From Halomicronema hongdechloris C2206 (GTDB lineage Bacteria; Cyanobacteriota; Cyanobacteriia; Phormidesmidales; Phormidesmidaceae), in assembly GCF_002075285.3 (NCBI RefSeq), contig NZ_CP021983.2:2850001-2882000 (forward strand): a DNA stretch of 32,000 bases, read 5' to 3'. The notes below the pieces were generated by a model, which saw only the letters and a program-made list of their open reading frames with translations, had not been told where the DNA came from and did no database searches. Shown here in pieces: positions 10,701 through 32,000 of this stretch. Within the stretch, counting starts at the first letter, position 1. Each line of letters opens with the position of its first letter. The position numbers and the translations under genes were made by a program.

Positions 10701-10718
10701 ATCAGTACGGTGATTCCC

Positions 10719-11866: not shown

Positions 11867-11933
11867 AGGGCTTCCAGACAATCCGTGTCTGCCGAATTCA
11901 ATTTCCTGCCATTATTGTGGCACTAGTTCAATA

Positions 11934-13686: not shown

Positions 13687-13786
13687 CGGCTCCAATCTCT
13701 CAAGCTGCTAATCCCCGTTCCCCGTTCTCTGTTTTTCCCCGTGGGTCCGTCCCTGGCCCCTCATGACGTCCTCTAAGTCAATTTTC

Positions 13787-17337: not shown

Positions 17338-17721
17338 CTACTCAGTTTGTTCCAAAATTTCAGACATGCGGTTGGCTAATTGCTGATCAAGGGTAAGCAG
17401 TTCCAGGCAAGTGACCTTTGCTGTAGCAGCAATAATAGCATCGGGTATTTTTAGGCTATATTGCCGTCGAAATTGAATCGTCATATCTTCTATGGCCTGA
17501 GTCATCGGGAGATATCGCATGATCTGGAGAATGCGAGTAATGCCCTGTACTTCAGCCTCTGTAATTCCCGGATAACTCAATAGTTCAATACGGGTTATGA
17601 AACTATGAGCGCAAATATCTAGCTCAACTGCGTGATCTTGTAAGATGCCAAGAACTATTTGATGACCTTTGAGGAGACCAATAACGATGTTGGTATCTAG
17701 CAGAAACTTACTCCCACTCAC
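17338..17721 (-). CDS. PIN-domain toxin (VapC-like)
   Basis: KFLLDTNIVIGLLKG...FITRIELLSYPG...IPDAIIAATAKVTCLELLTLD. A GTG at 17719-17721 overlaps the upstream antitoxin stop by 14 nt. The ORF-track start at 17787 is probably too far upstream. Confidence 0.8.
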   Translation of the reverse strand: MSGSKFLLDTNIVIGLLKGHQIVLGILQDHAVELDICAHSFITRIELLSYPGITEAEVQGITRILQIMRYLPMTQAIEDMTIQFRRQYSLKIPDAIIAATAKVTCLELLTLDQQLANRMSEILEQTE

Positions 17722-17929
17722 GTCGCATTGCCCTCTGAATCGCAACGGAATCTTCATTAAAGTTGGGAGAGTCTTTGAGAATACCAAAGTAGGTGGTAAT
17801 GGATGAATTATTTAGATTGTCACTTGCCTGAGTTCGCTGATGTACAAACTCTGCAAAGACTAAAACTAAGTTAGCTTGGTCTTCAGGTAGGGTTTTAACC
17901 AGCTCATAAATAGTCTCTGCCGTACTCAT
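17708..17929 (-). CDS. Putative antitoxin partnered with the PIN toxin
   Basis: Small ORF MSTAETIYELVKTLPEDQANLVLVFAEFVHQRTQ...GILKDSPNFNEDSVAIQRAMRREWE (ATG at 17927-17929). It overlaps the PIN gene start, the typical VapBC arrangement. The family assignment is tentative. Confidence 0.6.
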   Translation of the reverse strand: MSTAETIYELVKTLPEDQANLVLVFAEFVHQRTQASDNLNNSSITTYFGILKDSPNFNEDSVAIQRAMRREWE

Positions 17930-17992
17930 GATGACTGTTATCCTTAATTTTTTTCTTGCCTGAACATTAACCTCCAGCATTCTTATTCTAGG

Positions 17993-18364
17993 TTAAACCG
18001 ATGGAATCTTGGCAATGCTGGCGGATTGCAACGCCTCTGGGAAGTGCTTCCAGGGAATGGTGCCGTCGTTGCTGGCAAGATAGTGCTCACCAAACTTAAG
18101 CAAGGCTTTAGCGCTTTCGGTGGCAGGAACCTGGGTGAAGAGGTAGGTAGCTTTGTCTGGGGCAGAGAAGGCCACAGCGCAGGGGCTAGAGCAGGTCCAG
18201 AGGCAGCCGACTTCGCGAATTTCTAAATCGGCTTGATGGGGCCAAGTTTGATGAAGGATTTGAAGTTGGTTGAGCAACTTCGTTCCGTCAGATGGATCTG
18301 AGGTGTGCTCTTGCTCGGATTTTGCGTTGCAGGATTTGCAGATAAATAAGATATGTTTGGACAT
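17993..18364 (-). CDS. DUF1636 family predicted metal-binding (Cys-rich) protein, intact copy
   Basis: MSKHILFICKSCNAKSE...REVGCLWTCSSPCAVAFSAPDKATYLFTQVP...IPWKHFPEALQSASIAKIPSV. It carries CxxC plus C-x3-C-x3-C. It starts 5 bp after the stop of the binding-protein remnant. Confidence 0.75.
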   Translation of the reverse strand: MSKHILFICKSCNAKSEQEHTSDPSDGTKLLNQLQILHQTWPHQADLEIREVGCLWTCSSPCAVAFSAPDKATYLFTQVPATESAKALLKFGEHYLASNDGTIPWKHFPEALQSASIAKIPSV

Positions 18365-18369
18365 AGATA

Positions 18370-18654
18370 TTACTGATCGTCTACTAGATACTTGAACAAA
18401 TCATCGATGACAGCATAAGCATCTAAGATGCTATCTCCCATCCAATAGGCCGGTACTTCATAAACATTACCCTCCTTCACTGCTTGAAGTTGTAGCCAGA
18501 GCGGATCTGTCTTAAGACTCTCCAAAAGTTTCTCTGTATCTTTGGCAAATTCCGAAGTATATCCCCAAGTCCAGACAAAGATAATGTCGGCATCAAAGTT
18601 TTGAAAAAGTGTGCCTCCGCAGGCTGAAACCAGTGCGATCGCAGACTTTGTAGG
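18370..18654 (-). pseudogene. Siderophore-binding lipoprotein remnant (internal deletion, 5' end lost)
   Basis: SAIALVSACGGT (lipobox) is joined directly to LFQNFDADIIFVWTWGYTSEF...DPLWLQLQAVKEGNVYEVPAYWMGDSILDAYAVIDDLFKYLVDDQ, so about 230 central residues are missing. The first 7 codons of the tracked ORF (18655-18675) are IS terminal sequence. Confidence 0.7.
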
Positions 18655-19886
18655 GCAGGGCCATTTCATTCTCAAGGGGACCTAAAGATGCTAGAGTTTC
18701 AGGCTAATCCCAATGGTCCTAGCGTCTATGCGTCTGCCCCCTACCCCTACTACCCTCGACTCGAGGCATGAGCCTGCTGTAGAGCGCATCGAGATCCTCG
18801 AAGCCTTCGTTGCCCTGCCAGATGTCCGTCAGGCCTCTGGCAAACGACATCAGATGGCCTTATGCCTGGCGCTCTTCACCCTGGCGGTGACGGCCGGTAA
18901 TCGTGGATTTCTGGCCATTGGCGACTGGCTCAAAAGCTACCGCAGCGAGTTGATTGACCTCTTCAACCCGCCCAAGGGCCGTCTTCCCTCCTACAGCACG
19001 ATTCGCCGGGTGCTGCTAAAGCTAGACTATGGACAGTATTCGGCGGCCTTGGCTCGGTTCTTTGGCATTGAACCGTTAGCCGGTGAAACCTTAGCGGTGG
19101 ATGGCAAAGTCTTACGCGGGTCGTATCAACTGGAGACTGACAATCCTGACTCTCCCCCTCATCCCGCCATTCTATTGGTCAGTGCTTATCTGGTGGAGCG
19201 GGGGTTGATTCTGGAGCCCTATCAGGTAGAGCACAAGACCAACGAAATCAAAGCCCTGCCCGAGTTCATTAAGCAACTGGCGCTGAAGGGGGTGGTGATA
19301 GCCTTTGATGCGATTAGCACCCAAAAAAAACTGTCAGCTCATCCTTGACACCGACAATCATTACTTGGGTGCCCTCAAAGGCAATCAGGGTAACTTGCAC
19401 AAAAGCGTTCAGGCCAACTTTATCGCTGAGGACAGCTACACCGAGGTCAGTAAAGGGCATGGGCGACTGGAGAAGCGGGTCGTTAGCCTATGCACCACCC
19501 TCGATAACATCAAGCCCTGGCCAGGGCTGAAGACGCTCATTCGAGTGGAGAGTGAGCGACACTTCAAGAAGGGCGGGCAGCCTCACTTAGAAACTGAGAC
19601 CCGCTACTATGTCGCCTCGTTTTTAGAATCAGCGGAATCCTTGGCTCGGCGCATTCGGGGCTATTGGGGCGTTGAAAATAAGGTACATCATATCCGGGAT
19701 GTGACCCAGGGAGAAGATGCTTCGCGCATTCGTATGCACCAGTTGCCGCAAATCTTCGCCGTCGCTCGAAACTTCGCGCTCAACCTCTATCGCTCCAACG
19801 AGTTCGCCAATATGGCTCAGGCTGAACGACTCTGCAAGTTTGGTCTAGATACCCTCAAGGCCATTTTTAGAATGAAATAGCCCTGC
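18655..19886 (+). mobile_element. ISAs1-family insertion sequence (1232 bp) with terminal inverted repeats and an 8-bp target duplication
   Basis: The left end GCAGGGCCATTTCATTCTCAA (18655-) matches the reverse complement of the right end, GCAGGGCTATTTCATTCTAAA (-19886), at 19 of 21 positions. TTTGTAGG occurs at 18647-18654 and at 19887-19894, directly abutting both ends. Confidence 0.8.
18713..19880 (+). pseudogene. ISAs1-family transposase, reading frame broken in an A8 run
   Basis: ORF 18713-19348 (H-repeat-type N-terminus ...LPDVRQASGKRHQMALCLALFTLAVTAGNRGFLAIGDW...AFDAISTQKK) continues in the +1 frame as NCQLILDTDNHYLGALKGNQGNL... (ORF 19305-19880). The junction is the A8 run at 19323-19330. 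Confidence 0.8.
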
Positions 19887-19889
19887 TTT

Positions 19890-19920
19890 GTAGGGTGCGT
19901 TGCTGAACAGCAAACGCACC
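19890..19920 (+). repeat. REP-like hairpin with 5' GTAG, left of the RAYT gene
   Basis: GTAG-GGTGCGTTGC-tgaaca-GCAAACGCACC forms a 10-bp stem with a 1-nt bulge. Confidence 0.65.
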
Positions 19921-19965
19921 ATTTTGTGGGGCATCCTAACATTAATCCTTGACCTGCCTTCTCTC

Positions 19966-20514
19966 ATGCCCGACTATCGAAGACCTGAAATTGCAGGTGG
20001 CACCTACTTCATCACCCAAGTCACCTATCAACGCCAGCCCTGGCTGTGTCGTGAAATTGGTCGTCATGCGCTACGGACAGCTATCAATCAGGTTAGAGGC
20101 ACTCGTCCTTTTGCGATTGATGCCTTTGTGCTGTTACCCGATCATTTCCACTGTCTTTGGACTTTACCTCAAAACGACAGCGATTTATCCACTCGTCTGC
20201 GTCTGATCAAAACTTATGTCACGAGGCATTATGGAACTCAGTTAGGACTTGATATAGACGTTTCAGATTCTCGCAGGAAGCGGAAGGAGCGCAATCTGTG
20301 GCAGCGTCGATTTTGGGAACATTTGATTCGAGACGACACGGATTTTGCTCAATATTGTGATTATATTCATTACAATCCAGTGCATCATCAGTTGTGCCAA
20401 GTGCCAACAGAATGGCAATTTTCAAGTGTGCATCGATTGATTATTGAAGGGATTTATCCGCCCAATTGGGGTGACTACCCAGTTGAGTTTGGGCTGGAGG
20501 GGCGATGGCAGTGA
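19966..20514 (+). CDS. REP-associated tyrosine transposase (RAYT, IS200/IS605-like Y1 HUH enzyme)
   Basis: MPDYRRPEIAGGTYFITQVTYQRQPWL...FVLLPDHFHCLW has its HUH motif at 20143-20151. Also present are RRFWEHLIRDDTDF and YIHYNPVHHQL (catalytic Tyr region). The ATG is at 19966. Confidence 0.85.
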   Translation: MPDYRRPEIAGGTYFITQVTYQRQPWLCREIGRHALRTAINQVRGTRPFAIDAFVLLPDHFHCLWTLPQNDSDLSTRLRLIKTYVTRHYGTQLGLDIDVSDSRRKRKERNLWQRRFWEHLIRDDTDFAQYCDYIHYNPVHHQLCQVPTEWQFSSVHRLIIEGIYPPNWGDYPVEFGLEGRWQ

Positions 20515-20515
20515 T

Positions 20516-20545
20516 GGTGCGTTTGCTTGTCGCAACGCACCCTAC
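20516..20545 (-). repeat. REP-like hairpin with GTAG, inverted copy to the right of the RAYT gene
   Basis: The plus strand reads GGTGCGTTTGC-ttgtc-GCAACGCACC-CTAC. Its reverse complement, GTAGGGTGCGTTGC...GCAAACGCACC, has arms identical to the left copy. Confidence 0.65.
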
Positions 20546-20571
20546 AAGATCCGCGATCGCACTAAATTAAA

Positions 20572-21623
20572 CCTTATCGGAAATTGAGCCGATAGAATCA
20601 ATATCAGGAGCATCGACCAGGGATATGCCATGAAAGTGACCTATGCCGAGTTGCGGAGCAAACCTCGCACCCTCTGCAGTTTGACTGGACTGAGAGGGTC
20701 CGAGTTTGAGGCACTGTTGCCGAGCTTCGGCGATGCCTGGGATGACTTTGTGCGAGAGACCTTTGAGCGCGCAGGGCGTAAACGAGCCGTGGGAGCGGGT
20801 CGTAAAGCGCACCTGAAGACGCTGGAAGATAAATTGCTGTTCATCCTGATGTACTTTCGCCTCTATCCCACTCAGGCGGTGCAAGGCTTTCTCTTTGGCA
20901 TGAGCCAGGCGCAAGCGAATCAATGGATTCACCGCCTCACGGGGGTGTTAAACCAGGCCCTCGGCTACCAGCAGCAACTGCCGGAGCGAGAACCGGCGAA
21001 GCTGGAGAGCATCCTCCAACCCTGTCCGAGTTTAGAGTTCATGATCGATGGCAGCGAACGTCGCATCAATCGCCCCAAAGATCAGACCGACCGCAAGACA
21101 TATTACAGCGGTAAGCGGCAGGCTCATAGCGTCAAGAACGTGGTGGTTCACGATCGTAAGGGCAAGGTGCACTATCTGAGTGACACCTATGAAGGCAAGA
21201 AGCACGACAAGGCGATCGCGGACGAGAAGGACTTACGATTCCCGGAGGGCAGTACGTTATGGCAGGATAGGGGGTTTCAAGGCTTTGCCCCAGCGGGGGT
21301 GACGATTCAGCCACCGAAGAAGAAACCCCGCAAGCGCTCTCTCAGTACGATTGAGAAGATGAATAACCAAAAACATTGCCAGCATTCGTGTGGAAGTCAA
21401 ACACCACATTGGAGGTATCAAACGGTGTCAAATTTTGGTGCAGCCGTTTCGCAATTGGGTCGACCATTACATCGATGACGTGATGGAAACGGCCTGCGGG
21501 TTACACAATTTCCGCTTGACTTATCGGAAAATGCAAAGTGACGCTTTAAGCCAAGCTGCTTAGTTTCCAAAGAATTGGGAGAGATGCTGACTCACAACAA
21601 TCTCTCCCCTATTTCCGATAAAG
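20572..21623 (+). mobile_element. IS5-family (DDE_Tnp_4 / HARBI1-like transposase) insertion sequence; ends approximate
   Basis: The short terminal inverted repeat TTATCGGAAAT (20574-20584) pairs with ATTTCCGATAA (21611-21621). A subterminal hairpin GGGAGAGAT...ATCTCTCCC lies at 21577-21608. I could not identify a target duplication confidently. Confidence 0.6.
20630..21563 (+). pseudogene. IS5-family transposase with a +1 frameshift
   Basis: ORF 20630-21478 reads normally to ...KKKPRKRSLSTIEKMNNQK and then becomes nonsense. The +1 frame from about 21375 reads IASIRVEVKHHIGGIKRCQILVQPFRNWVDHYIDDVMETACGLHNFRLTYR...*, the expected C-terminus (stop at 21561-21563). The break lies at the A5 run near 21369-21375. 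Confidence 0.8.
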
Positions 21624-21650
21624 TCTATTATTTCTTGAAGCAAAACGAAG

Positions 21651-21956
21651 ATGGCAAACCTTGTGCCTGCAGATATTGGGAATCAACAACTTCTTTGTTT
21701 TGTAAAAGTTTTTAAGAGTAATGTTAGAGCCATGTCTGAATATATACCTCAGGTTTATCCAAGTCAAATTTTCCTTTTCAGAGCCAGCGACGGCATCTCT
21801 AGAGAGTTTGATAGTCAAACCTTGGGTTGGGGAGAACTTTGTTGTGGACCATTAGAGATTTTAGATATTCCAGGTGATCATTACACAATGCTTCATCTAC
21901 CTCATGTTCAAGTACTAGCAGAAAGATTAATATATTGCCTTGGTCAAGTTAAATAA
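21651..21956 (+). pseudogene. C-terminal remnant of an NRPS/PKS-type thioesterase domain
   Basis: VKVFKSNVRAMSEYIPQVYPSQIFLFRASDG...TLGWGELCCGPLEILDIPGDHYTMLHLPHVQVLAERL matches the C-terminal third of type I thioesterase domains, including the GDH catalytic-His motif. It begins about 25 bp after the IS5 end, and no upstream synthetase is present. Confidence 0.7.
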
Positions 21957-22082
21957 AGGGCTCAAATGCGGAGGGAATCTGAAACTCGTTCACACTATAA
22001 TTATGGTCATATATCTGGAATGGAATTTATATTACGAGAATACGCAAGCCTCCTTGAACAGCTTTTTTGACCATGAGTACTT

Positions 22083-23090
22083 TTACACAACTTTATTCAA
22101 ACGACTGACTCGATACTGCTTCACCTCCCACAGTGGTTTATCCTTGCCTGAACTCCACATCGTTTTGACGGTGCCGCTAACCTCCACACGGGCTTCGTAA
22201 GTGCCCGATACCCTGCCTTCATGAGAATTGAAGTCAATACGAACCTCGGCCCAGTCGGGGTAATACTCGTCTGACTCATCCATAGCCAACACCTGACTCA
22301 CTTTGGCATAATGGAACCAGTTCCATCCCTCCTGCATCCACATTTCTCGCTCAGCAATTTGCTCGACCTGACTCAATCCAGCCCAACCCTGATAATAGTC
22401 ATAGAGGTCGGCAACTGGTCCACGGCGATACACCAACAGGTCTAATACCTCTAGCTCTAAGTGGCCCCAGTAACGTCCTTCTGGGAAGTCGACCAGAGTG
22501 GGAGCGAAGTTGTGGGGACCGAGATGAGTGCACCGCCAGACTCGCAATTTGCCTCCAGAATTCGCCGCGTGTTCAGAGCGGAGCTGGCGATATAGAGGAT
22601 AACCAAATCGTCCACAGGCAACATCGTAGCTCCCATGGGTACACAACATCATCTCCCGAATGTCTTCTGTTTCTTGGCGACTGCTCTCAAACTGAGGCAA
22701 TAAATCGGGTTGCTGGAGTAACGCCAGGACAACCGTAACTACTTGCTCGTCTGGAACGACAAACTCTTGTTTCTCAAACTGAACAAAGCCTTCTTCGGAA
22801 GGTCGCCGATAGTATAGTATGCGGGTATAGTTAGGCTGAGAGTATTGACAATCAGGTGCAATCGCCATTGCCCTCAAGCTGAGACCTTGCTCCTTCTTGA
22901 GCTGAGTGGCCAGATCGGCAATCGGTTGAAATTGGGGCTGAGCCTGCCAGAACTCTATGGGCCAGGGTTCTGGGACTTCAATAAATAGGAAGGCGTCGTA
23001 GTTTCCAGCAGATCCAATTGGATCTTCGCCGTTCGCTTTAGAAACTTCACAGCAGTAACAGAAATTAGTTAGAATCTCAGCTTTGGTCAT
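22083..23090 (-). CDS. Sucrase/ferredoxin-like (thioredoxin-like [2Fe-2S], Apd1/Aim32-type) protein
   Basis: 335 aa. CTHGSYDVAC is a C-X8-C motif (Cys codons at 22641-22643 and 22614-22616). CTHLGPHNFAPT is an H-X3-H motif (His codons at 22524-22526 and 22512-22514). An AGGAG Shine-Dalgarno lies upstream. The gene is co-directional with, and 93 bp downstream of, binding protein 3. Confidence 0.8.
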   Translation of the reverse strand: MTKAEILTNFCYCCEVSKANGEDPIGSAGNYDAFLFIEVPEPWPIEFWQAQPQFQPIADLATQLKKEQGLSLRAMAIAPDCQYSQPNYTRILYYRRPSEEGFVQFEKQEFVVPDEQVVTVVLALLQQPDLLPQFESSRQETEDIREMMLCTHGSYDVACGRFGYPLYRQLRSEHAANSGGKLRVWRCTHLGPHNFAPTLVDFPEGRYWGHLELEVLDLLVYRRGPVADLYDYYQGWAGLSQVEQIAEREMWMQEGWNWFHYAKVSQVLAMDESDEYYPDWAEVRIDFNSHEGRVSGTYEARVEVSGTVKTMWSSGKDKPLWEVKQYRVSRLNKVV

Positions 23091-23183
23091 AACTCCTTTT
23101 GAGTGATTAGTGATTGTTCATTAGATTGACTGTTAGTCAAGTGACTATGGGTAAAAAACAACAAACAACATTACATCCTTGAT

Positions 23184-24206
23184 CTATTCCTTTTCCCCAA
23201 CCAGGTACTTAAACAAGTCGTCGACAACAGCATTGGCAGCCAGTGGACCATCCCCAATCCAATAGCCTGGAACCTCGTAAACCTTACCTTGTTTCACCAC
23301 CGCTAGTTGCGACCAGAGCGGATCTGCTTTCAGCCTCTTCAAAGCACTGTTTGCTTGCTGAGCTTGCTCAGCATTATAGCCATAGGTCCACACAAACATG
23401 GCATCCCCATCTAGATCGTGGATTCGTTCCTTGCTGATGTCCTGTTGACCTCCCATCTGATTCTGGTATGCCGGACGAGATACCCCAGCATCTGCCAAGA
23501 TAGTTCCACAAAATGAGTCTTTGAGATAGACTACGATCTGATTTGGATAAATACGGACTATTGAAACCTCAAGCTGATTCAGGCGCTCGCCCATCTGATC
23601 TTTAAACGCTTCGAGTCGAGCATAGTAGTCAGTTATCATCTGCTTTGCCACGTCTATCCTATCCAGTGTCTCCGCATACTGCATAAGCCTTTCTTTCCAT
23701 TTATCACTATGTTCAAATGGGAAAATAACTGTTGGGGCAATTTTCGATAAAGTGTCATAATTTTCCTTAAGCCCATCTCGGTAGCTCAAGATAAAATCGG
23801 GCTTGAGTTGCAGAATCTTTTCTAGATTCGGGATATTCACACTACCAACATTTTCAATCCCCTTAGTTTTGTCCTTTAAATGGGGAAAATCAGCCTCTAA
23901 CTCGTCGCTACCGACTGGTTTTATACCCAAAGACAAGACGTAATCTAATCCTCCTAGAACAACGACTCGTTGTAGATTATTGGGAACGCACGTTTCCCCC
24001 ATCGCATGTTTAACAATATGGCAGTCCGATACTGGTAATGAGGGTTGATGGGAAGAAGAGTTTTGGGAAAACGTTCCACTGCAAGCTGAGATGAGAAGAA
24101 ACATAGCTATTGCTGACAAAACATGTCGCAGCCTTCCAGGAACATTACAACCATTTCCTGAAAGTATTTTTCTCAAATTGCCAATACTTGGTGTCTGATC
24201 AATCAT
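23184..24206 (-). CDS. Iron-siderophore ABC transporter substrate-binding lipoprotein, copy 3
   Basis: AIAMFLLISACSG (lipobox). The C-terminus is DPLWSQLAVVKQGKVYEVPGYWIGDGPLAANAVVDDLFKYLVGEKE. Confidence 0.9.
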   Translation of the reverse strand: MIDQTPSIGNLRKILSGNGCNVPGRLRHVLSAIAMFLLISACSGTFSQNSSSHQPSLPVSDCHIVKHAMGETCVPNNLQRVVVLGGLDYVLSLGIKPVGSDELEADFPHLKDKTKGIENVGSVNIPNLEKILQLKPDFILSYRDGLKENYDTLSKIAPTVIFPFEHSDKWKERLMQYAETLDRIDVAKQMITDYYARLEAFKDQMGERLNQLEVSIVRIYPNQIVVYLKDSFCGTILADAGVSRPAYQNQMGGQQDISKERIHDLDGDAMFVWTYGYNAEQAQQANSALKRLKADPLWSQLAVVKQGKVYEVPGYWIGDGPLAANAVVDDLFKYLVGEKE

Positions 24207-24262
24207 TCGTTAGTCCATCAACTTTTCATTTGCTCTTCACTTTACTTGGAACTAACGTCGGA

Positions 24263-26890
24263 TTAAAACCTGACTGAAACAGAACCAGTAACCGACAAAG
24301 GCTCTCCTTGAGGCAGGCGCGCTCTATCTGAAGCAGATACAATAAATCTCTCGTCAAAGAGATTATCAATCGTTAATCTAAATGTCCAATTTTCTACTTG
24401 GTAAGCTGCCCCCAAATCAACTCGTACAAAACTAGGTACTGTGAAACTATTGGCAGTATCTCCAGCTCGTTCGCCAACATACACTAAACCTGCCCCTAAA
24501 CTTAAGCCATTTAAGGCACCTTGAGTAAACTCATACTCGCCGTAAAGTCCGAGACTGTTTCGAGGGCTATTGAGGAAACGGTTACCTTCTAGATCTGGTT
24601 CACCGTCGATAATTTCTGCTTCAAATAGGTTAGTGTAGGCTAGGATTACCCTAAAGTTATCGGTGATTTGACCAGCAATGTCTAATTCTACCCCTCGGCT
24701 ACGCACATCTCCAACTGGAATGACGAAGTTGGGATCAATTGGATCAGTCTCTGCAATATTGGTTTGAGTCAAGTCAAACAGGGCTGTGGTGAGACTTAGT
24801 CGATTATCGAATAGATTAACCTTGCCACCAATCTCGAATTGCGTAGCTCGCCTAGGCTCAATAAATTCACCGTCTATAGTTTCACCAAACTGAGGTTCGG
24901 TTGATTGGCTGAAACTGCCATAAATAGAAGCCGAATCACTCAACATGTAGAGTAAACCAACACTAGGTGCGACAAAATCGTCGTCTTGAAAGACCTCGTC
25001 ACTAATGCCATCTTTATTTTCAAACTGGCCATAACGCAGCCCAGCCAATAAACGGAAACGCCCCAATGTTATGAAGTCCTGAATATAGATGCCCCAATCG
25101 TTACTAATGTTATTAATTGGTATAGGGTCACCTAAAGGCGGTAGCGGGAAGTCAAAGGTGGGATTAGCAACGTCAATGATTGGGAAGTCAGACCCAAGCC
25201 TAAGTGGGAAGTCAGTCTCTGATCTGTTATACTCAGCGCCTGCTAGTAACTGGTGTTCAGAAGCTCCAATTTCAAAATCCCCTCTAATTTCACCACGTAA
25301 ATTAGCCTGATTAAAATCATCTAAAATCTGACCCACAAACAGCGGCAGTTCATTGTTGGCGTTAACATTGATAGTTATTGCAGAAGGATCTAATTCTCGG
25401 CGAGTGTCGAAATATTGCCCACTTAGGGCAATTGACCATTGTTCACTAATAGGTTGATCAAAGTAGGCAGCAACTCGAAAGTGGCGATTAATATCGCTAT
25501 TACGAGGGTCAGTGAAACTGCGATCAAAGAAGAATTCTCCATCAAAGAATTTAGCACCAGTTGTACCATCTTTTTCTAGCCGAAAATATTCAGCTTCGAG
25601 GGTGAGAGATCCTCCTCCTCCGGTTAACCAGGTCAATGCAGGAGCAACAAAAATTCGATCATCTTCAATATTGGGGACGAAAGAGTTAGACTCTTGGAAT
25701 GCGAGATTGAGCCGATACAGTAGATTCTGATTTTGAGTTAGTGGTCCTGTCAAGTCCACTTCTCCACGATAGAAATCAAAGCTCCCAGCTTCAAAACTAA
25801 TATCGTAACTAGGGGTATCTTCAGGCCTCTCAGTGATGTAATTGACGACACCACCAGGTGTTCCTGGACCGAAGAGTAGAGAAGAAAATCCCTTCAGAAT
25901 TTCAATGCGTTCAATATTAGCTAGATCTCTGACCAAGAAGCGAGGGTTATCCCGTAAACCATTCACGAAGGTTTGTCGTTGGACATCAAATCCACGAATT
26001 GTAAATTGAGGAGTGTTTCCCGAAGCACCTTCCTGCCCTCCTTGAATCACACCGCTAATATAGGGGGCTAATTCTTCCCCTCGTCTGGCGGCTCGATCTT
26101 GAATTAGCTCTTCAGTAATGACCCCAATGGAGGCTGGCGTTTCTAGTAGGGGAATGTTTAGTCTAGTGCCTGTAGTAGCATTGGACGTACGGTAGCCCTC
26201 TTGCTCCCCCGTCACCACAATCTCGATCGCATCATCAGCATCATCGACCTGGGCGATGCCTGGCACGACAGTCCAGACCAAATTACCGGCTTCGGCACTC
26301 ACGGTCGCTTCCGGTGGCGCATCGGTGCCCATAATCGCTACTTGAATGCGATCCTGGCCCACAGCCGTCACTGACACCCGGGCAATGCCTGCAGCTGGGT
26401 CGGTTGCCTGAAACTCGTCTCCCTCTGGCAGGGCCAGCACCGCATTGGGAATCTCTGCCACGAGGGCATTGCCTACGGTTTCTGTGGTCGGAACAGACAA
26501 ATCTCCGTCAGCGGTCTCCAATATTACTTGCAAACCAGTCTCGCTGCTTTCAACCCGCACGCCGGTAATTTCGATGATCGCCGCTTCAATTTGAGCGACC
26601 CACTCGGTAACAGTGGTGGCGGGGGGTGGGGTAGAGGGGTGTTGGCGGAGCCTGCCCGAAGGGCTTAGGGGTGATGGGGTGGTGGGGTGATGGGGTGATG
26701 GGGTGGTGGGTATTTGAGAGGTGCCCCTCTCGTTGGTATTTGACTCGCCCACTTGCCCACTTGCCCGCTCGCCTAGGTCATTTCCTGTGGCGGGTTGTGC
26801 CCAACCGAGGGCCACTAGCGTCGTCAGGCTCAGGGTGCTGGCTAGGGCATAGGAACACTGGACTAGGCCTGTTATGGAATGCGATCGCAT
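24263..26890 (-). CDS. TonB-dependent siderophore receptor with AMIN-type extension, copy 3 (divergent barrel, Pro-rich insert)
   Basis: 875 aa. ITGVRVESSETGLQVILETADG...GNALVAEIPNAVLALPEGDEF...IQVAIMGTDAPPE. Plug motif IERIEILKGFSSLLFG. Terminal strand SVTGSVSVRF. The low-complexity block PTTPSPHHPTTPSPLSPSGRLRQHPSTPPP is encoded by the G-rich repeat at 26637-26710. Confidence 0.92.
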   Translation of the reverse strand: MRSHSITGLVQCSYALASTLSLTTLVALGWAQPATGNDLGERASGQVGESNTNERGTSQIPTTPSPHHPTTPSPLSPSGRLRQHPSTPPPATTVTEWVAQIEAAIIEITGVRVESSETGLQVILETADGDLSVPTTETVGNALVAEIPNAVLALPEGDEFQATDPAAGIARVSVTAVGQDRIQVAIMGTDAPPEATVSAEAGNLVWTVVPGIAQVDDADDAIEIVVTGEQEGYRTSNATTGTRLNIPLLETPASIGVITEELIQDRAARRGEELAPYISGVIQGGQEGASGNTPQFTIRGFDVQRQTFVNGLRDNPRFLVRDLANIERIEILKGFSSLLFGPGTPGGVVNYITERPEDTPSYDISFEAGSFDFYRGEVDLTGPLTQNQNLLYRLNLAFQESNSFVPNIEDDRIFVAPALTWLTGGGGSLTLEAEYFRLEKDGTTGAKFFDGEFFFDRSFTDPRNSDINRHFRVAAYFDQPISEQWSIALSGQYFDTRRELDPSAITINVNANNELPLFVGQILDDFNQANLRGEIRGDFEIGASEHQLLAGAEYNRSETDFPLRLGSDFPIIDVANPTFDFPLPPLGDPIPINNISNDWGIYIQDFITLGRFRLLAGLRYGQFENKDGISDEVFQDDDFVAPSVGLLYMLSDSASIYGSFSQSTEPQFGETIDGEFIEPRRATQFEIGGKVNLFDNRLSLTTALFDLTQTNIAETDPIDPNFVIPVGDVRSRGVELDIAGQITDNFRVILAYTNLFEAEIIDGEPDLEGNRFLNSPRNSLGLYGEYEFTQGALNGLSLGAGLVYVGERAGDTANSFTVPSFVRVDLGAAYQVENWTFRLTIDNLFDERFIVSASDRARLPQGEPLSVTGSVSVRF

Positions 26891-26921
26891 AATTCAACCT
26901 CCTCACACCGTTGGCAAATCA

Positions 26922-26940
26922 AATGCAAATAACTTGCATT
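26922..26940. promoter_or_regulatory. Perfect 7-5-7 palindrome between the putative -10 and the start of receptor 3
   Basis: AATGCAA-ataac-TTGCATT lies 32-50 bp upstream of the ATG (26890). On the coding strand it sits just downstream of a TATTAT -10 candidate (plus-strand 26953-26958). The GAGGAGG Shine-Dalgarno is at 26898-26904. Confidence 0.45.
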
Positions 26941-26989
26941 AATGTGGGGACAATAATATCGACATTCAGCCGTTGCTGCGAATCCCAGA

Positions 26990-27025
26990 CGGAATTTTTG
27001 TGAATCCAGGCGGGAGTTTTTGGTG
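26990..27025 (-). promoter_or_regulatory. Phased direct repeat (candidate AraC-type operator) upstream of receptor 3
   Basis: CGGAATTTTTGTG (26990-27002) and GGGAGTTTTTGGTG (27012-27025) have GGA cores 22 bp apart. They lie 100-135 bp upstream of the start. Confidence 0.5.
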
Positions 27026-27032
27026 CTGGGGA

Positions 27033-27068
27033 GGACGGAGAGCGGCGGACGGAGAGCGGCGGACGGAA
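27033..27068. repeat. 14-bp tandem repeat GGACGGAGAGCGGC x2.5
   Basis: Read directly: 27033-27046, 27047-27060, and a partial unit at 27061-27068. It is followed by GGGGTGGGGTGATGAG. Confidence 0.9.
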
Positions 27069-27393
27069 AAGGGGGGTGGGGTGATGAGCAACGGGGATTT
27101 ACTCCCATCTGTGGGGTTGGTTGATTAATCGGTGCGATCGCACCGTTGACTGGTTCGGCCCGAGAGGATATTTGGAAAGTACTCTGCAACCTTGCTCCAG
27201 CCTGGATTCTGGCCGACGGAACCATATACTCTAAAACGCCTACCTTACAGGCCGTTCAGCCGCGTTTTCAAATGTCCTCTGAAGGTGCTGCCGAGATCCT
27301 GGAGAGTCCTCAGGTTCTGTCTGGGGAAGCGGTTTGGCCCGGGTTCGAGTGACCCCTAGCGTCGATTTGGTAACATACTGCTGTCTTAAACCA

Positions 27394-27975
27394 TTACTGC
27401 GCCCCGGCTGCAAATAGGGCGCTGGGCGTTAGGTCCAGAGTGCTCAATTGCCGAGAGGGCACTGGCTCTTCCCCCGTGGCGGTGCCCAGTTCAGTATAGG
27501 TGTCACCTTCCAGAGTTAGCACTAATACCGTCTGCGCTTGGGGGTCAACAATCCAGTACTCCGGGATGCCCACATCTTGATATTGCAGGCGTTTGGCCAC
27601 ATAATCCCGCTGCCATTGCAATTCCCCTGGGCTGACGACCTCCACCACCAGCAACGGCGGCGACATGGTCAGCCGAATGGTGTTGCGCTGGGCCAACAGG
27701 GACACATGCTCGTCTCGAATAAGCGTCAAATCTGGGTAGCGATTTTTCGGTTCGCCCCGCACCTCCAACTCTAAGCCATGCCCCCGCACCCGATCGGTTC
27801 CTAGTCGCAGGGCAAAGGTTAAAAATAGTCGATTGGCGATTTGCACATTGCATCCAGACTCTGGTGGCACGGCAATCAATTCTCCATTAAAGAGTTCATA
27901 GAGCCGGTCAGTGCCATCGTCGTAGGCGAGATACTCCTCAAAGGTTTGAAATCGGGCGCTGAGCTGTTGAACCAT
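27394..27975 (-). CDS. Uma2 family endonuclease
   Basis: FEEYLAYDDGTDRLYELFNGELIAVPPESGCNVQIANRL...YPDLTLI...PPLLVVEVVSPGELQWQRDYVAKRLQYQDVGIPEYWIVDPQAQTV. Confidence 0.85.
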   Translation of the reverse strand: MVQQLSARFQTFEEYLAYDDGTDRLYELFNGELIAVPPESGCNVQIANRLFLTFALRLGTDRVRGHGLELEVRGEPKNRYPDLTLIRDEHVSLLAQRNTIRLTMSPPLLVVEVVSPGELQWQRDYVAKRLQYQDVGIPEYWIVDPQAQTVLVLTLEGDTYTELGTATGEEPVPSRQLSTLDLTPSALFAAGAQ

Positions 27976-28020
27976 GATCTGTATTGGGCAGGGGATTGCT
28001 TTAAACCTACTTTAGATGAG

Positions 28021-28230
28021 TGATGGGGTGTTGGGGTGATGGGGTGTTGGCGGAGCCTGCGCGGAGCGCATAGGGGTGATGGGGTGATGGGGTGATGGGG
28101 TGATGGGCAAGCTCTTCACCCTTCGACTGCGCTCAGGGCAAGCTCTTCACCCTTCACTCTTCACCCTTCACTTTCCACTCCCCCACTCCCCCACTCCCCC
28201 ACTCCCCCACTCCCTCACTCCCTCACTCCC
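28021..28230. repeat. Composite short-tandem-repeat block
   Basis: The block contains GGGGTGAT octamers with a hairpin core, a GGGCAAGCTCTTCACCCTTC duplication, and CACTCCCC octamers. GGGGTGAT x4 is at 28073-28104. The core GGGGTGTTGGCGGAGCCTGCGCGGAGCGCATAGGGGTGATGGGGTG starts at 28041. GGGCAAGCTCTTCACCCTTC occurs at about 28105-28124 and 28136-28155. (CACTCCCC)n/(CACTCCCT)n runs over 28176-28230. The block ends at the AraC copy 3 stop codon. Confidence 0.9.
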
Positions 28231-28235
28231 CACCC

Positions 28236-29195
28236 TCATCCCTGCCGCAAGTACTGCCCCGGATTGATGCCAAACTTCTTGCGAAAGGCGCGGGCGAAGG
28301 AGCTACGGCTGGCGAAGCCGACGGTGTGGGCCACGCCGGTGACGGTTTTGGTCCCCTGCTGCAGCAGTTGGCGGGCATAGTCTAGCCGGTAGTGGTGCAG
28401 GTAGCCGAAGACGGTAGTGCCGAAGACCTGACGAAAGCCCCGTTTCAGGGCACATTCATTCAGGTGAATCTGCCGGGCCAGTTCCGCCAGGGTCGGGGGG
28501 TTATTGAAGTGCCGCAGCAGAATATCGCGGGCCTGGTGAATGCGCTCGATGTCGGCGGGTTTGAGGTTAATTGAGGGGCCAGGGGGCTGCTGCTGGCTCA
28601 GTGCATCATGCAGGCACAGGGTCAGCAGTTCCCAGGCTTTACTTTCCAGATAGAGCTGCTTAATCACCCCAGTGTAAGGGCAATGCAATATCTGGTGCAG
28701 CACCATCTGCATGGGGGCAGTCATGGTGCCAAACTGACTGTAGTAAAGTTGCTGGGGCGAGCGCAGCAGCTCCGGTAGGGGCAGCGCCCGAGAGCCGAGC
28801 CACTGGCTCAAGCGCTCTGGGTCGATGTGCAGGCTGAGCCAGGCGTGGGGATGCTCGGCCGGCTTAATCGAGGTACCCCCCGGGGCGAGACCACTGCCGT
28901 AGAGGCCATAGCACTTGGGGCCCAGGGGTGGATCGGTGTAGGCTCCTTCTAAGTAAAAGGTGCACTCCACCGGATGGGGACGCTCTTCAGCAGTGGTCAT
29001 CACCTGATGCCGTAGTTGGTAGCGGGCGATGTCCATCTGGACCCCGTCTCGCAGCTCAATCGAGTGTTGATACCCCTGGCCGAGACTCTCCGGATAGTGC
29101 CATTTCTCTTCAAAGTCTCCTGTCGCCCCTGTTGCGGCGGTGGCGCTGGCTTGAATCAGCTCGTGGTAGTCGCGCTGGGAAAGGGTCAGGGCCAT
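28236..29195 (-). CDS. AraC family transcriptional regulator (PchR-like), copy 3
   Basis: 319 aa. WHYPESLGQGYQHSIELRDGVQMDIARYQL...MQMVLHQILHCPYTGVIKQLYLESKAWELL...LAELARQIHLNECALKRGFRQVFGTTVFGYLHHYRLDYARQLL...SSFARAFRKKFGINP. Confidence 0.92.
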   Translation of the reverse strand: MALTLSQRDYHELIQASATAATGATGDFEEKWHYPESLGQGYQHSIELRDGVQMDIARYQLRHQVMTTAEERPHPVECTFYLEGAYTDPPLGPKCYGLYGSGLAPGGTSIKPAEHPHAWLSLHIDPERLSQWLGSRALPLPELLRSPQQLYYSQFGTMTAPMQMVLHQILHCPYTGVIKQLYLESKAWELLTLCLHDALSQQQPPGPSINLKPADIERIHQARDILLRHFNNPPTLAELARQIHLNECALKRGFRQVFGTTVFGYLHHYRLDYARQLLQQGTKTVTGVAHTVGFASRSSFARAFRKKFGINPGQYLRQG

Positions 29196-29250
29196 GGAAG
29201 AGAGGCTGCGATCGCACCAGTTCGATAACCTATCCTTAAAACAATACCTT

Positions 29251-29270
29251 AATTGAGATCAACTCTCAAT
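29251..29270. promoter_or_regulatory. 7-5-7 palindrome (Fur-box geometry) upstream of AraC copy 3
   Basis: A-ATTGAGA-tcaac-TCTCAAT has perfect 7-bp arms. It lies 56-75 bp upstream of the ATG at 29195. Confidence 0.45.
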
Positions 29271-29451
29271 ACTTCGTCACGTTACCTTGGCCAGCCATGC
29301 CTCACGGCCAGATAACCGGGATGCGATCGCGCTGCGAGTAACTATCATCGCGCCGTGAGTTAGTAAATCTTTGGGTCGGAGGTCCTCAACCCGGAACCGT
29401 CTGACCCAGAATATCTGGCAGATTAACAGTTGGTTGACTGGGTGTTGAGAT

Positions 29452-30186
29452 CTAAGTGTCTGACAGTTCTTCCGGATCGATGCCGCGAGCTTTGAGCATA
29501 GCCGCTAACCGTTCTGCCCGTTGGCGTTCCTGCTCGGCTCGCTGGCGCTCTTGCTCGGCTCGCTGGCGTTCTTGCTCGGCTTTTTCATCTCCCGTCAGCA
29601 ACATATTTCCTTGAGCATCGCACCAGCGCAGCCAGGTATCGTGCCGCCCTTCAAATTCTCCCTGCCAGAGGGTGAGGCCAATCCCCATCGGTTCTAGCCA
29701 GTGTTCCGACAGTTCGGCATAATGCAGCCCCCGCAGTTCATAGAGGTATAGCGGGTTTTCCCCCAACTGCCTGGCTGGGTCATAGACGACGTAGTAGCCC
29801 ACTCGCATTTGAGCATAGGTTTGGAGCTTACTGGTCAGCTCATTGCCAACCCGGTTGGAGACAACTTCCAGCACCACTTCCGGCGGTTTACCAAAATTCC
29901 ACACCAGATAGCAACGGTTGGGCTTCTCCCACCACGCTTCGGGTACCTGTACGTCTAAACTGATGAAGACATCGGGCACCACTGCGGGCTGGTTCACCGC
30001 GTGATAGATGCCAACGTTTGCTTCAGCGAGAAAAGTAGAGCCCCTCAGAGAGCTGTAGAGACTACTGACCAGCAACCGCTGCTGCTTGGCTGAGGCGAAA
30101 TTGTCCACCGGCGTATCATCCTCAGTGATGAGTAGATTAGCATCCGGAAATGTGACCTCATCGGTCGTGGCGAGTGGATTGCTCAT
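29452..30186 (-). CDS. Uma2 family endonuclease with C-terminal EQERQRA-repeat (coiled-coil-like) tail
   Basis: MSNPLATTDEVTFPDANLLITEDDTPVDNFASAKQQRLL...VVPDVFISLDV...PPEVVLEVVSN...YAQMRVGYYVVYDP..., followed by EQERQRAEQERQRAEQERQRAERLAAMLKARGIDPEEL. The ATG is at 30184-30186. Confidence 0.85.
   Translation of the reverse strand: MSNPLATTDEVTFPDANLLITEDDTPVDNFASAKQQRLLVSSLYSSLRGSTFLAEANVGIYHAVNQPAVVPDVFISLDVQVPEAWWEKPNRCYLVWNFGKPPEVVLEVVSNRVGNELTSKLQTYAQMRVGYYVVYDPARQLGENPLYLYELRGLHYAELSEHWLEPMGIGLTLWQGEFEGRHDTWLRWCDAQGNMLLTGDEKAEQERQRAEQERQRAEQERQRAERLAAMLKARGIDPEELSDT
29529..29591. repeat. 21-bp tandem repeat x3 inside the Uma2 coding sequence
   Basis: cgttggcgttcctgctcggct / cgctggcgctcttgctcggct / cgctggcgttcttgctcggct. 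This encodes the EQERQRA heptads on the minus strand. Confidence 0.9.
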
Positions 30187-30374
30187 GAGATTTCTGCCGT
30201 TGCCAGAACCAACCTCATTGTATTCGCTTTGCTGGAGCGACTCGGCAAAAGAGGGGCTGTGCGATCGCAACACGAGTTACTCACAGTTAACTCGTCCCTT
30301 GTCGACAAGGCAGACAGAGGTGCGATCGCAAGGGCTAGTCCTGAGTGCCCTTTCTAGTATGGCACCCACGCTGC

Positions 30375-30488
30375 TTAGACCGATGGAATTTTGGCGACTT
30401 GTGCGGATTGCAGTGCTTCGGGAAACTGCTTCCAGGGGATGTCGCCGTTCTGGCTGTTGCGGTAGACTTCGCCGAAGTAGGATGAGAT
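30375..30488 (-). pseudogene. DUF1636 C-terminal relic (37 codons)
   Basis: The minus-strand translation ISSYFGEVYRNSQNGDIPWKQFPEALQSAQVAKIPSV* matches the C-terminus of the intact copy at 17993-18364. It is bounded upstream by a stop at 30489-30491, just below the HEPN gene. Confidence 0.6.
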
Positions 30489-30498
30489 TAGATATGAC

Positions 30499-30834
30499 CT
30501 ATTGCTCCGGTAACCGTTGAGTCACAAATTTCAATACCAATACGGCTTCTGTTGCGTAGGGAGTCAAGATATCTGCTGCTTCTTGCAGGCTTTGAAAATC
30601 AGGTTTAGAAGACGAACAGAGCCCTAGTAAAACATCCAAATCGTGAGTTTTTACAAACGCTATGTTTTGAGATGCCAAATAGGCCTTCAGCGCCTTTTCT
30701 GCGGACTGCTGGCAATGATAAACCACCGCATCGAGCAACGACTCCTCATTATCAAGCAGTACTTGGGCTACTTTCAAGTCTCGCTGAGACTTGATCAACC
30801 ACTGCTGAGTTTCTTCGTATTGGGCATCATTCAT
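30499..30834 (-). CDS. HEPN domain protein (partner of the MNT nucleotidyltransferase)
   Basis: WLIKSQRDLKVAQVLLDNEESLLDAVVYHCQQSAEKALKAYLASQNIAFVKTHDLDVLL...LTPYATEA. The start overlaps the MNT stop by 8 nt. The C-terminus looks shortened. Confidence 0.75.
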   Translation of the reverse strand: MNDAQYEETQQWLIKSQRDLKVAQVLLDNEESLLDAVVYHCQQSAEKALKAYLASQNIAFVKTHDLDVLLGLCSSSKPDFQSLQEAADILTPYATEAVLVLKFVTQRLPEQ

Positions 30835-31147
30835 ATAAAACTTTACCCTGACGGAGAGCTTGACCGACTAACGAGCTTGACACGCTGGCTTGACGATCTA
30901 CTTCTGCACGAGTCATGACCAGGATGTCTTTCGGAATGCCCATCCCGCGTAGTGCCCTATGGGCCTTGCGCGCCCGCCGATAGCGAGGCTCGTCAGACTC
31001 AGAGAGTATTACCAATAAGTCAATATCGCTATCTTTGGTTGGCTCTCCGTAGGCATAAGAGCCAAATAAAATAATTTGCTCTGGTTTGAGTGCAGCGACT
31101 AACCGCTGAGTCATCTGCTCTAGTAAGTCCAGGGTCAGTTGGGGCAC
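30827..31147 (-). CDS. Minimal nucleotidyltransferase (MNT) domain protein
   Basis: LKPEQIILFGSYAYGEPTKDSDIDLLVIL contains the GS-x-GxxxxDxD-type motif. The start is a GTG at 31145-31147. Confidence 0.85.
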   Translation of the reverse strand: MPQLTLDLLEQMTQRLVAALKPEQIILFGSYAYGEPTKDSDIDLLVILSESDEPRYRRARKAHRALRGMGIPKDILVMTRAEVDRQASVSSSLVGQALRQGKVLYE

Positions 31148-31179
31148 AGGGTGAACTCATTCAGAGACTCTCAACTATT

Positions 31180-31486
31180 CTACACCGCTGGGATTTTGGC
31201 GACTTGTGCGGACTGCAGCGCTTCAGGAAATTGGCGACCGGGAATGGATTCGCCATCGTGTTGACGATAGAGTTCGACAAATTGAAGTAACGCCTCGGCA
31301 CTTTCAACAGTTGGCAAATCAGGCAAATTGGTGAATAAATAGGTCGGTCGATTGACGGCCTTGCTCAAAAGAACTGCTCCAGTTACGCATCCTTTCAAAG
31401 GCATCGGGCTGCTCGATCGTTTGGTTTTTGGCCGGGTCAGCGTCCCATAGTTCATCCCAGTCCTGCGCAGAAAGAATTAGCGGCAT
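31180..31486 (-). pseudogene. DUF1636-like gene, degenerate (Cys ligands lost, probable frameshift)
   Basis: The C-terminal part ...RPTYLFTNLPDLPTVESAEALLQFVELYRQHDGESIPGRQFPEALQSAQVAKIPAV* is clearly DUF1636-like. The N-terminal part lies in another frame (MPLILSAQDWDELW...), and both the CxxC and CxxxCxxxC motifs are missing. Confidence 0.55.
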
Positions 31487-31502: not shown

Positions 31503-32000
31503 TTATCCTCGCCGTCGTCGTAAATACACCCCCGGGTTCACCCCAAACTTGCGCCGGAATGCGGCGGCAAAATGGCCGCGATTGGCAAAGCCGACGGCGT
31601 GAGCCGCCTGGGTCACGTTCATGTCTCCTGATTCCAGCAGTTGCCGTGATCGCTCCAGCCGCTGCTGGTGCAGGTAGCCGAAGACCGTGGTACCAAACAC
31701 CTGACGAAAGCCGACTTTGAGTTTGTGATCATTGATGCCAATGGCGCGGGCCAGTTCGATCAGAGAGGGCGGGTTTAACAATCGTCGATGCAGCAGGTTA
31801 CTGGCATAGTGAATGCGCTCCACATCGTCGGGGGTCAGGCGGTAGGCACTCTGGGGAGCATCGTTGCCGGACTGTAGCGTCTCAATCAGCAGCACCATCA
31901 ACTCCCAGACCTTACTTTCTAGATAAAGGCGCTGGGTCAGCCCTTGAAAGGGACAGTTCAAGATTTGCTGCACCGTCATTTGCATGGCTGCGGTGGGAGC
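31503..32000 (-). CDS. AraC family transcriptional regulator (PchR-like), copy 4; 5' end runs off the right edge
   Basis: ...APTAAMQMTVQQILNCPFQGLTQRLYLESKVWELMVLL...LIELARAIGINDHKLKVGFRQVFGTTVFGYLHQQRLERSRQLL...GHFAAAFRRKFGVNPGVYLRRRRG*. The frame stays open to position 32000. Confidence 0.9.
   Translation of the reverse strand, partial: APTAAMQMTVQQILNCPFQGLTQRLYLESKVWELMVLLIETLQSGNDAPQSAYRLTPDDVERIHYASNLLHRRLLNPPSLIELARAIGINDHKLKVGFRQVFGTTVFGYLHQQRLERSRQLLESGDMNVTQAAHAVGFANRGHFAAAFRRKFGVNPGVYLRRRRG

Follow-up and report, generated by a model that had tools for sequence, protein, structure and literature searches.

The stretch of the Halomicronema hongdechloris C2206 genome considered here raises the question of why a small cysteine-rich gene of the uncharacterised family DUF1636 (PF07845) should stand among genes for iron-siderophore uptake. 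The window, i.e. the whole stretch of 32,000 nucleotides that was analysed (C1:2850001-2882000 of a complete 5.58-Mb cyanobacterial genome; genome completeness 100%), holds one intact DUF1636 gene, copy A, and two decayed ones, copies B and C; all three, proposed in a first-pass annotation from the letters alone, proved to be real by PF07845 and tblastn. That annotation had considered a recurrent placement of such genes in siderophore modules unexpected. We find that the siderophore placement is the signature of one monophyletic cyanobacterial DUF1636 subfamily and is not scattered family-wide, and that in cyanobacteria a DUF1636 gene regularly takes the fourth place in cassettes for iron-siderophore uptake.

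In the window these cassettes form a decaying array on the minus strand (Pfam, NCBIfam), with an AraC regulator followed by a TonB-dependent siderophore receptor with an AMIN domain (NCBIfam TIGR01783) and a periplasmic binding protein (labelled FhuD/FecB-like by NCBIfam). The same order with DUF1636 as the fourth gene, i.e. AraC, TonB-dependent receptor, Peripla_BP_2 and DUF1636, all labelled by Pfam, occurs in Timaviella, Chroococcidiopsis CCMEE 29 and Leptolyngbya NK1-12, and Leptolyngbya-like, Nostocales, Microcoleus, Pleurocapsales and Chroococcidiopsis genomes have all preserved the gene order. In a sample of relatives ranked by their similarity to copy A (77 loci from one-genome-per-species cyanobacterial records, with 85 full-length genes), 63 of the 85 DUF1636 genes have a binding-protein gene on the same strand and at most 400 bp upstream, the median gap being 16 bp. 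The spacing of the genes suggests that DUF1636 is co-transcribed with its cassette. Genes for ABC half-transporters lie within 1.5 kb behind DUF1636 in 26 of the 85 cases, and against the PDB and NCBIfam they gave generic exporter-type matches only (MsbA, ABCB1, TM287/288); these half-transporters could be siderophore exporters or YbtPQ/IrtAB-like importers.

A ranked sample of this kind gave the impression that the DUF1636 genes of cyanobacteria are cassette-linked almost without exception, which an even sample rejects. When PF07845 was run against 401 evenly drawn cyanobacterial genomes, 88 had a match at E <= 1e-25, and 124 places were fetched, whose neighbours were labelled by BLAST against the proteins of the window, of the rest of the genome and of a few fetched loci. 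A binding-protein gene lies directly upstream in 23 of the 124, CbiJ directly downstream in 24 and CobW directly downstream in 25; a receptor or AraC gene is found within 2.5 kb in 13, no labelled neighbour in 35 and a contig end upstream in 3, and from one fetched stretch no full-length DUF1636 was recovered. The share directly linked to a binding protein is thus about 19%, compared to about 40% linked to CbiJ or CobW.

The tree of these genes (124 columns, a quick search that leaves the inner order unresolved) places copy A, another intact gene of this genome (paralog 2) and every one of the 23 genes linked to a binding protein in one clade of 30 rows with an SH-aLRT of 99. The CbiJ-linked, CobW-linked and receptor-preceding groups fall in other clades. 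Mapped on the tree, the context labels change 21 times, as opposed to 71.6 times when shuffled, and none of 200 shuffles was as low. The link of DUF1636 to siderophore uptake is not chance: the context survey that the first-pass annotation had proposed for cyanobacteria finds a neighbourhood that is not random with respect to iron-uptake genes, and the recurrent placement holds, for one clade (63 of 85 relatives; 23 in the even sample). In the literature that could be searched, DUF1636 is named in three papers, none of which connects it with siderophores.

Outside this clade the family keeps different company. In alphaproteobacteria, including Rhodobacter capsulatus, the source of the structure PDB 9JN8, the order is DUF1636-cobW-cobN-(cobG)-cobH, in agreement with a 2025 preprint (10.64898/2025.12.19.695462). 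The non-cassette contexts of cyanobacteria include a cobalamin riboswitch, DUF1636 and then CbiJ, CobW or a BtuB-like receptor; the riboswitch was found in six of seven non-cassette loci searched with Rfam, and the search was negative for the window and for six cassette loci, 142 kb in total. The first-pass statement that DUF1636 usually lies near cobalamin or metal-chaperone genes is confirmed, for cobW-cobN in alphaproteobacteria as well as for the riboswitch with CbiJ, CobW or a BtuB-like receptor in cyanobacteria. The receptor-preceding clade is likewise not a siderophore context, given that a cobalamin riboswitch precedes DUF1636 in all three of its loci searched and that its receptor, in the one locus scanned, scores against B12 (BtuB) and heme models as high as against the siderophore model. 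In this clade (L148 1392-5228; also L141 and L146) riboswitch, DUF1636 and a TonB-dependent receptor with BtuB- or heme-like scores follow each other, and in L148 a gene for an MbnP-family copper-binding protein lies just upstream. Copy A is not cobalamin-linked: the window lacks the riboswitch, the gene falls outside the CbiJ and CobW clades, and the CbiJ and CobW homologues of this genome are located elsewhere.

PF07845 has five matches genome-wide, namely copies A, B and C and two further intact genes. Paralog 2 (C1:3771586-3771990; PF07845 match 3771613-3771948) is an orphan of the siderophore clade, and its neighbours are a PIN gene and fragments of MFS and ABC genes. Paralog 3 (C1:4926992-4927402; PF07845 match 4927013-4927387) belongs to a small sister clade. 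In its region (C1:4920782-4936096) it lies behind DsrE-like and ThrRS genes and before a Crp-family gene, near genes for an FeoB-like GTPase permease, a flavoprotein, a Fur-family regulator and ALAD; its clade mates (L184, L187, L191) share those neighbours, and the region looks like a zinc- or metal-starvation region.

Copy A itself (17993-18364, minus strand, 123 aa) covers positions 1-117 of the 117 of the PF07845 profile with E 8.7e-41 and 139.4 bits (cut-off 31.6), its sole profile match above the cut-off. As the first-pass annotation had described, and as PF07845, Peripla_BP_2 and tblastn bear out, its ATG stands 5 bp past the stop of a binding-protein remnant on the same strand. This 3' remnant of a FhuD/FecB-like gene (ORF 18370-18675, minus strand; Peripla_BP_2 E 6.4e-6) corresponds in 18373-18606 to residues 262-339 of the binding protein with 55-56% identity (tblastn). 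An ISAs1-type element, with its ISAs1-family transposase in two frames (18713-19880, plus strand; DDE_Tnp_1_assoc, DDE_Tnp_1), occupies the expected site of the remaining binding-protein gene upstream of copy A, and the cassette has lost its upstream receptor and AraC genes. Behind copy A follows a toxin-antitoxin pair identified with Pfam, a DUF2281 antitoxin (17708-17980, minus strand), which starts 12 bp after the copy A stop, and a PIN toxin (17338-17787, minus strand); a comparable arrangement of DUF1636, a 92-aa gene and PIN is found in Timaviella (L006). The nearest relative of copy A, which carries a Pleurocapsales label, is 86% identical, with a dN/dS of 0.07; among the cassette DUF1636 genes compared dS is saturated at 1.2-1.4, and purifying selection is strong.

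All five family cysteines are kept in copy A (Cys9, Cys12, Cys54, Cys58 and Cys62). In an alignment of 40 relatives C9, C12 and C54 do not vary at all, C58 and C62 hardly vary, and the full pattern CxxC...CxxxCxxxC is present in every clade consensus. An AlphaFold2 model of copy A (pLDDT 86, pTM 0.81) finds its best Foldseek match in 9JN8, deposited as a 'thioredoxin-like ferredoxin' (TM 0.81-0.84), followed by Aquifex aeolicus Fd4 (1M2A, 1F37), Azotobacter vinelandii FeSI (5ABR) and NuoE subunits of complex I, with probabilities of 0.99-1.0 for 9JN8, 1M2A, 1F37 and 5ABR. A profile search of PDB sequences returned 9jn8_A with E 1.5e-18, so that 9JN8 is itself a DUF1636 protein, and in 2015 the family had already been predicted to adopt the fold of a thioredoxin-like [2Fe-2S] ferredoxin (PMC4520260). 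The protein begins at the first strand and the CxxC ligands, its first Cys ligand being residue 9; it lacks a signal peptide and therefore should be cytoplasmic. Copy A is thus predicted to be a small cytoplasmic thioredoxin-like ferredoxin, and the conserved cysteines, together with the title of 9JN8, suggest that it binds a [2Fe-2S] cluster.

The comparison with solved ferredoxins shows likeness and difference. The Rhodobacter protein shares family, fold and the CxxC...CxxxCxxxC pattern with copy A; however, it is only 27% identical, is encoded by the first gene of an aerobic cobalamin operon (DUF1636-cobW-cobN) and lies outside the siderophore-cassette clade. Fd4, FeSI and NuoE/NDUFV2 resemble copy A in fold (Foldseek probability 0.97-1.0, TM 0.45-0.65), but show 15-19% identity and a different genomic role. 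Thioredoxin-like ferredoxins have their four-Cys cluster site near the surface (PMC4520260). Compared to Fd4, FeSI and NuoE the second ligand of copy A is displaced, with Cys12 in the CxxC instead of Cys22-24, and copy A has an additional conserved Cys62 and a C-terminal IPWKQFPExLQS motif which they do not possess.

What could such a protein do in a siderophore cassette? We consider the chances about even that DUF1636 of the cassette clade is a cytoplasmic [2Fe-2S] electron donor for reductive iron release from ferric siderophores after their import. The receptor and the binding protein would deliver a ferric siderophore of the hydroxamate type to a FecCD-type importer of the inner membrane, a shared one whose genes lie elsewhere; in this genome two adjacent FecCD-type permease genes lie outside the window (C1:3800146-3802199). 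In the cytoplasm the DUF1636 protein would hold its [2Fe-2S] cluster on Cys9, Cys12, Cys54 and Cys58. A single electron that it passes on to the ferric siderophore, either straight or via a partner, would then release Fe(II).

This role has precedents in unrelated proteins. FhuF of E. coli is a cytoplasmic [2Fe-2S] reductase of ferric hydroxamate siderophores, encoded with uptake genes, but is unrelated to DUF1636 in sequence and fold family (PF06276/PF11575). Its cysteine motif, C-C-x10-C-x2-C, is likewise unlike that of DUF1636. The SIP/ViuB/YqjH flavin reductases and the membrane reductases of the FoxB type also serve reductive siderophore iron release, in contrast with FAD or haem as cofactors and with other folds; genes for SIP and FoxB-type reductases cluster with TonB-dependent receptors (bioRxiv 10.1101/2021.01.28.428567). 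FhuF (PF06276), SIP and PepSY_TM (FoxB-type) have no match in this 100% complete genome. Among the 401 cyanobacterial genomes SIP occurs in one and the FhuF domain in 13, mostly within open frames of about 600 aa; taking the latter as siderophore synthetases of the IucA/IucC type leaves about six stand-alone FhuF genes. DUF1636 may therefore do the job of FhuF, SIP/ViuB or FoxB in this genome.

The place of DUF1636 can also be taken by another candidate ferredoxin. In the third intact cassette of the window (22083-29195, minus strand) the AraC gene (28236-29195; Pfam), the TonB-dependent siderophore receptor (24263-26890; Pfam, TIGR01783) and the FhuD/FecB-like binding protein (23184-24206; Pfam, NCBIfam) are followed by a Suc_Fer-like gene (22083-23090) in the slot held elsewhere by DUF1636, and Suc_Fer-like genes stand behind the binding protein in further sister cassettes (L006 of Timaviella, L060, L047). 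In these proteins C150, C159, H189 and H193 are invariant and make up CX8C...HX3H, the motif of the bis-His [2Fe-2S] site in the thioredoxin-like ferredoxin domain of yeast Apd1 and Aim32, members of the Suc_Fer family (PF06999; PMC8482512). Slot and ligands fit the idea of reductive iron release, and a thioredoxin-like fold of the Suc_Fer-like proteins would follow from that literature. In contrast to DUF1636, these proteins are about 335 aa long, are expected to use Cys2His2 ligands and show no detectable profile similarity to it. The suggestion that small metal-cluster proteins are accessory parts of the cassettes is nonetheless supported, in that a Suc_Fer-like gene can fill the DUF1636 slot. 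A second Suc_Fer-like gene of this genome lies about 1.5 kb from the permease genes mentioned above (region C1:3798005-3802199). More tentatively, and at somewhat less than even chances, we propose that thioredoxin-like ferredoxins, i.e. the DUF1636 cassette clade and the Suc_Fer-like Cys2His2 proteins, form an undescribed class of ferric-siderophore reductases, which replaces FhuF, SIP and FoxB in cyanobacteria and was recruited from cobalt- and zinc-trafficking operons.

Is DUF1636 bound to the siderophore of its own cassette? For 62 pairs of DUF1636 and binding protein from 47 genomes the distances of the two proteins are correlated (r = 0.31), and none of 2000 global permutations reaches this value. 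However, re-pairing the cassettes within genomes leaves r unlowered (1270 of 3000 reach it), by which a cassette-specific tracking is rejected; the proposed test of whether the DUF1636 phylogeny follows the adjacent binding protein thus finds no co-divergence at the level of the single cassette. In several genomes DUF1636 paralogs are much closer to each other than their binding proteins are, with protein distances of 0.13 versus 1.18 in Myxacorys (L028/L038), 0.30 versus 1.21 in Chlorogloeopsis (L057/L081) and 0.19 versus 1.21 in Goleter (L074/L076), which suggests gene conversion or a recent replacement of DUF1636 alone. Because divergence of DUF1636 does not follow that of the adjacent binding protein, and because copy A and paralog 2 have remained intact as orphans, under long-term purifying selection, while their cassettes decayed, the sequences suggest a generic role that is not bound to one siderophore. 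Such a generic function would in turn explain why intact orphan copies persist while the surrounding cassettes decay.

The decayed copies are scars of deletion or recombination and did not arise by mutation of whole genes. Copy B had been read as a degenerate gene at 31180-31486 that begins about 16 bp after the stop of an AraC gene, the fourth copy in the window. This AraC gene (31503-32000, minus strand; HTH_18 E 1.2e-22) is present with its C-terminal part and extends beyond the window, and the ATG at 31486, 16 bp after its stop, is real. However, the first 43 codons (31358-31486, minus strand) belong to an AraC/PchR-type regulator gene, their product being 58% identical (E 4e-12) to the AraC N-terminus of the DUF1636 cassette at locus L060 and matching L020 and L031 as well; DUF1636 is confined to 31183-31398 (minus strand), in a different frame, where residues ~55-123 are retained (PF07845 E 4.5e-11, profile 50-117; BLASTP identity 46% to copy A and 61% to L049). 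Copy B is thus a deletion junction between the 5' end of AraC and the 3' end of DUF1636; what was lost is the greater part of AraC together with receptor, binding protein and the 5' half of DUF1636. Copy B had also been said to have lost every Cys ligand: C9, C12 and C54 are indeed gone, though because that half of the gene was deleted and not because of point mutations, and one Cys still aligns with C58.

Copy C, noted before as a relic of 37 codons at 30375-30488 (minus strand; 24 bits to PF07845), is confirmed as a C-terminal end of DUF1636. It retains the last ~33 codons and the stop, reads YFGEVYRNSQNGDIPWKQFPEALQSAQVAKIPSV up to that stop, and shows 88% identity when compared with the C-terminal end of intact relatives. 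Between the two DUF1636 3' ends lie the ORFs of an MNT nucleotidyltransferase (30827-31147, minus strand) and its toxin-antitoxin partner HEPN (30499-30834, minus strand). Over 30375-31299, which covers the final ~120 nt of copy B, MNT, HEPN and the relic, the nucleotide identity with Vasconcelosia minhoensis is 82-83%, and the matching order there is DUF1636, MNT, HEPN and DUF1636 3' relic (L020 8329-9493). In the same locus (8091-8330) a short G-rich insert, located after residue ~27, interrupts the DUF1636 gene that follows the binding protein and shifts its reading frame. At least ten other genomes have 5' or 3' fragments of DUF1636 beside intact genes, with inserts of roughly 0.7-2 kb (e.g. 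L006, L010, L025, L028, L040, L048-L050, L053 and L076), and the inserts inspected hold toxin-antitoxin genes, such as BrnT/BrnA in Leptolyngbya NK1-12. This suggests that toxin-antitoxin cassettes move via homologous (Campbell-type) recombination at DUF1636 ends. Copy C is thus a displaced 3' end beside an MNT-HEPN insert, and the relics are by-products of recombination at DUF1636 ends and not cases of independent gene decay.

Similar scars are present elsewhere in the window, and Uma2 genes, toxin-antitoxin pairs and insertion sequences stand between the cassettes. In addition to the cassette with the Suc_Fer-like gene, two intact ones are present: one with its receptor at 5068-7656, its binding protein at 3882-4943 and an MFS gene behind the latter, and one with its receptor at 13894-16392 and its binding protein at 12691-13695, behind which there is only an AraC fragment (12444-12587), itself a deletion scar. 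Further scars are a receptor stub with an AMIN domain (9591-10097) and a C-terminal fragment of an ABC transporter (10569-10685) fused to an AraC C-terminus within ORF 10140-10862. The open-ended ORF at 1-1503 (minus strand) encodes an ABC exporter-type half-transporter and not a receptor, and is 51% identical to the gene behind DUF1636 in Chroococcidiopsis. Five genes of the Uma2 family (putative restriction endonuclease-like) lie among the cassettes (1639-2238, 11330-11881, 16855-17244, 27394-27975 and 29452-30273), and in many other genomes Uma2 genes are found at equivalent sites between AraC and receptor or between cassettes (e.g. L008, L012, L017, L025, L033, L060 and L070).

Several observations weigh against DUF1636 as the electron donor for iron release. 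The [2Fe-2S] cluster is taken from the 9JN8 title and the conserved cysteines, and the reduction of ferric siderophores in cyanobacteria may be non-specific or periplasmic, in which case a dedicated reductase is not required. Many cassettes, three in the window included, have neither a DUF1636 nor a Suc_Fer-like gene of their own, and what now precedes copy A is an insertion sequence and no more than the remnant of a binding-protein gene. As to the Suc_Fer-like proteins, profile comparison with DUF1636 by hhalign (probability 0.3%) detects no relatedness of the two families, and the AlphaFold2 model, built from 4 sequences, is poor (pLDDT 64); Foldseek with this model gave no significant match, the weak ones being to thioredoxin folds and NuoE-like proteins (E 0.02-0.5). 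Finally, the sister clades of DUF1636 adjoin CobW-type GTPase metallochaperones, CbiJ and cobalamin riboswitches, a setting which a hand-off of metal fits equally. In this main rival explanation, which we regard as rather improbable, the Cys-rich site would bind a metal ion or a labile cluster, receive the siderophore iron and relay it onward in the manner of a chaperone. The direct neighbourhood of sister clades to CobW/COG0523 GTPase metallochaperones and the cobalt chelatase CobN speaks for it, as do the Fur-family, FeoB-like and flavoprotein genes in the region of paralog 3 and the annotation of DUF1636 as 'predicted metal-binding protein'. On the other hand, the sole solved DUF1636 member was deposited as a thioredoxin-like ferredoxin (9JN8), the four-Cys geometry matches that of [2Fe-2S] ferredoxins (PMC4520260), and no COG0523 gene is found inside the siderophore cassettes, CobW-like genes being kilobases away and in few loci only.

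Alternatively, a ferredoxin fold would suit a donor of electrons to some other reaction of the cassette, such as the recycling or modification of the apo-siderophore, or to a partner enzyme encoded elsewhere, all the more as the members in cobalamin operons most plausibly feed electrons to biosynthetic enzymes; we think this unlikely, because no acceptor enzyme recurs and the regular neighbours are only the receptor, the binding protein, AraC and the ABC half-transporters. Fe-S proteins often serve as iron sensors, and an AraC regulator heads every canonical cassette, so that the state of a DUF1636 cluster might report iron or redox status and modulate the AraC/PchR-type regulator or a transporter. 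To this we give an equally small chance: neither a DNA-binding nor any known interaction domain is present in DUF1636, its divergence does not follow that of its cassette, and orphan copies persist without an adjacent AraC gene. The least probable explanation is that DUF1636 is a passenger without any part in siderophore use, which owes its position to en-bloc duplication and the horizontal spread of cassettes. The cassettes are indeed mobile and recombining, the nearest relative of copy A, with its 86% identity, being labelled Pleurocapsales, and DUF1636 fragments and toxin-antitoxin inserts are abundant. Nevertheless, the order is conserved across the cyanobacteria named above despite a saturated dS of 1.2-1.4 and under strong purifying selection, the median gap is 16 bp, and the clade is monophyletic and old.

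How iron is released in the cytoplasm from imported siderophores is not settled for cyanobacteria, a phylum in which hardly any genomes carry the classical reductases. The monophyletic cassette clade of DUF1636, with its conserved ferredoxin-like gene immediately behind that of the binding protein, offers a concrete and testable candidate for the missing iron-release enzyme. For the uncharacterised family DUF1636 the contexts described here provide a first functional split between cobalamin-linked lineages, iron-linked ones and those associated with zinc or other metals, and such a split would aid the annotation of the cyanobacteria that bear DUF1636 (88 of the 401 sampled) and of their iron-uptake islands.

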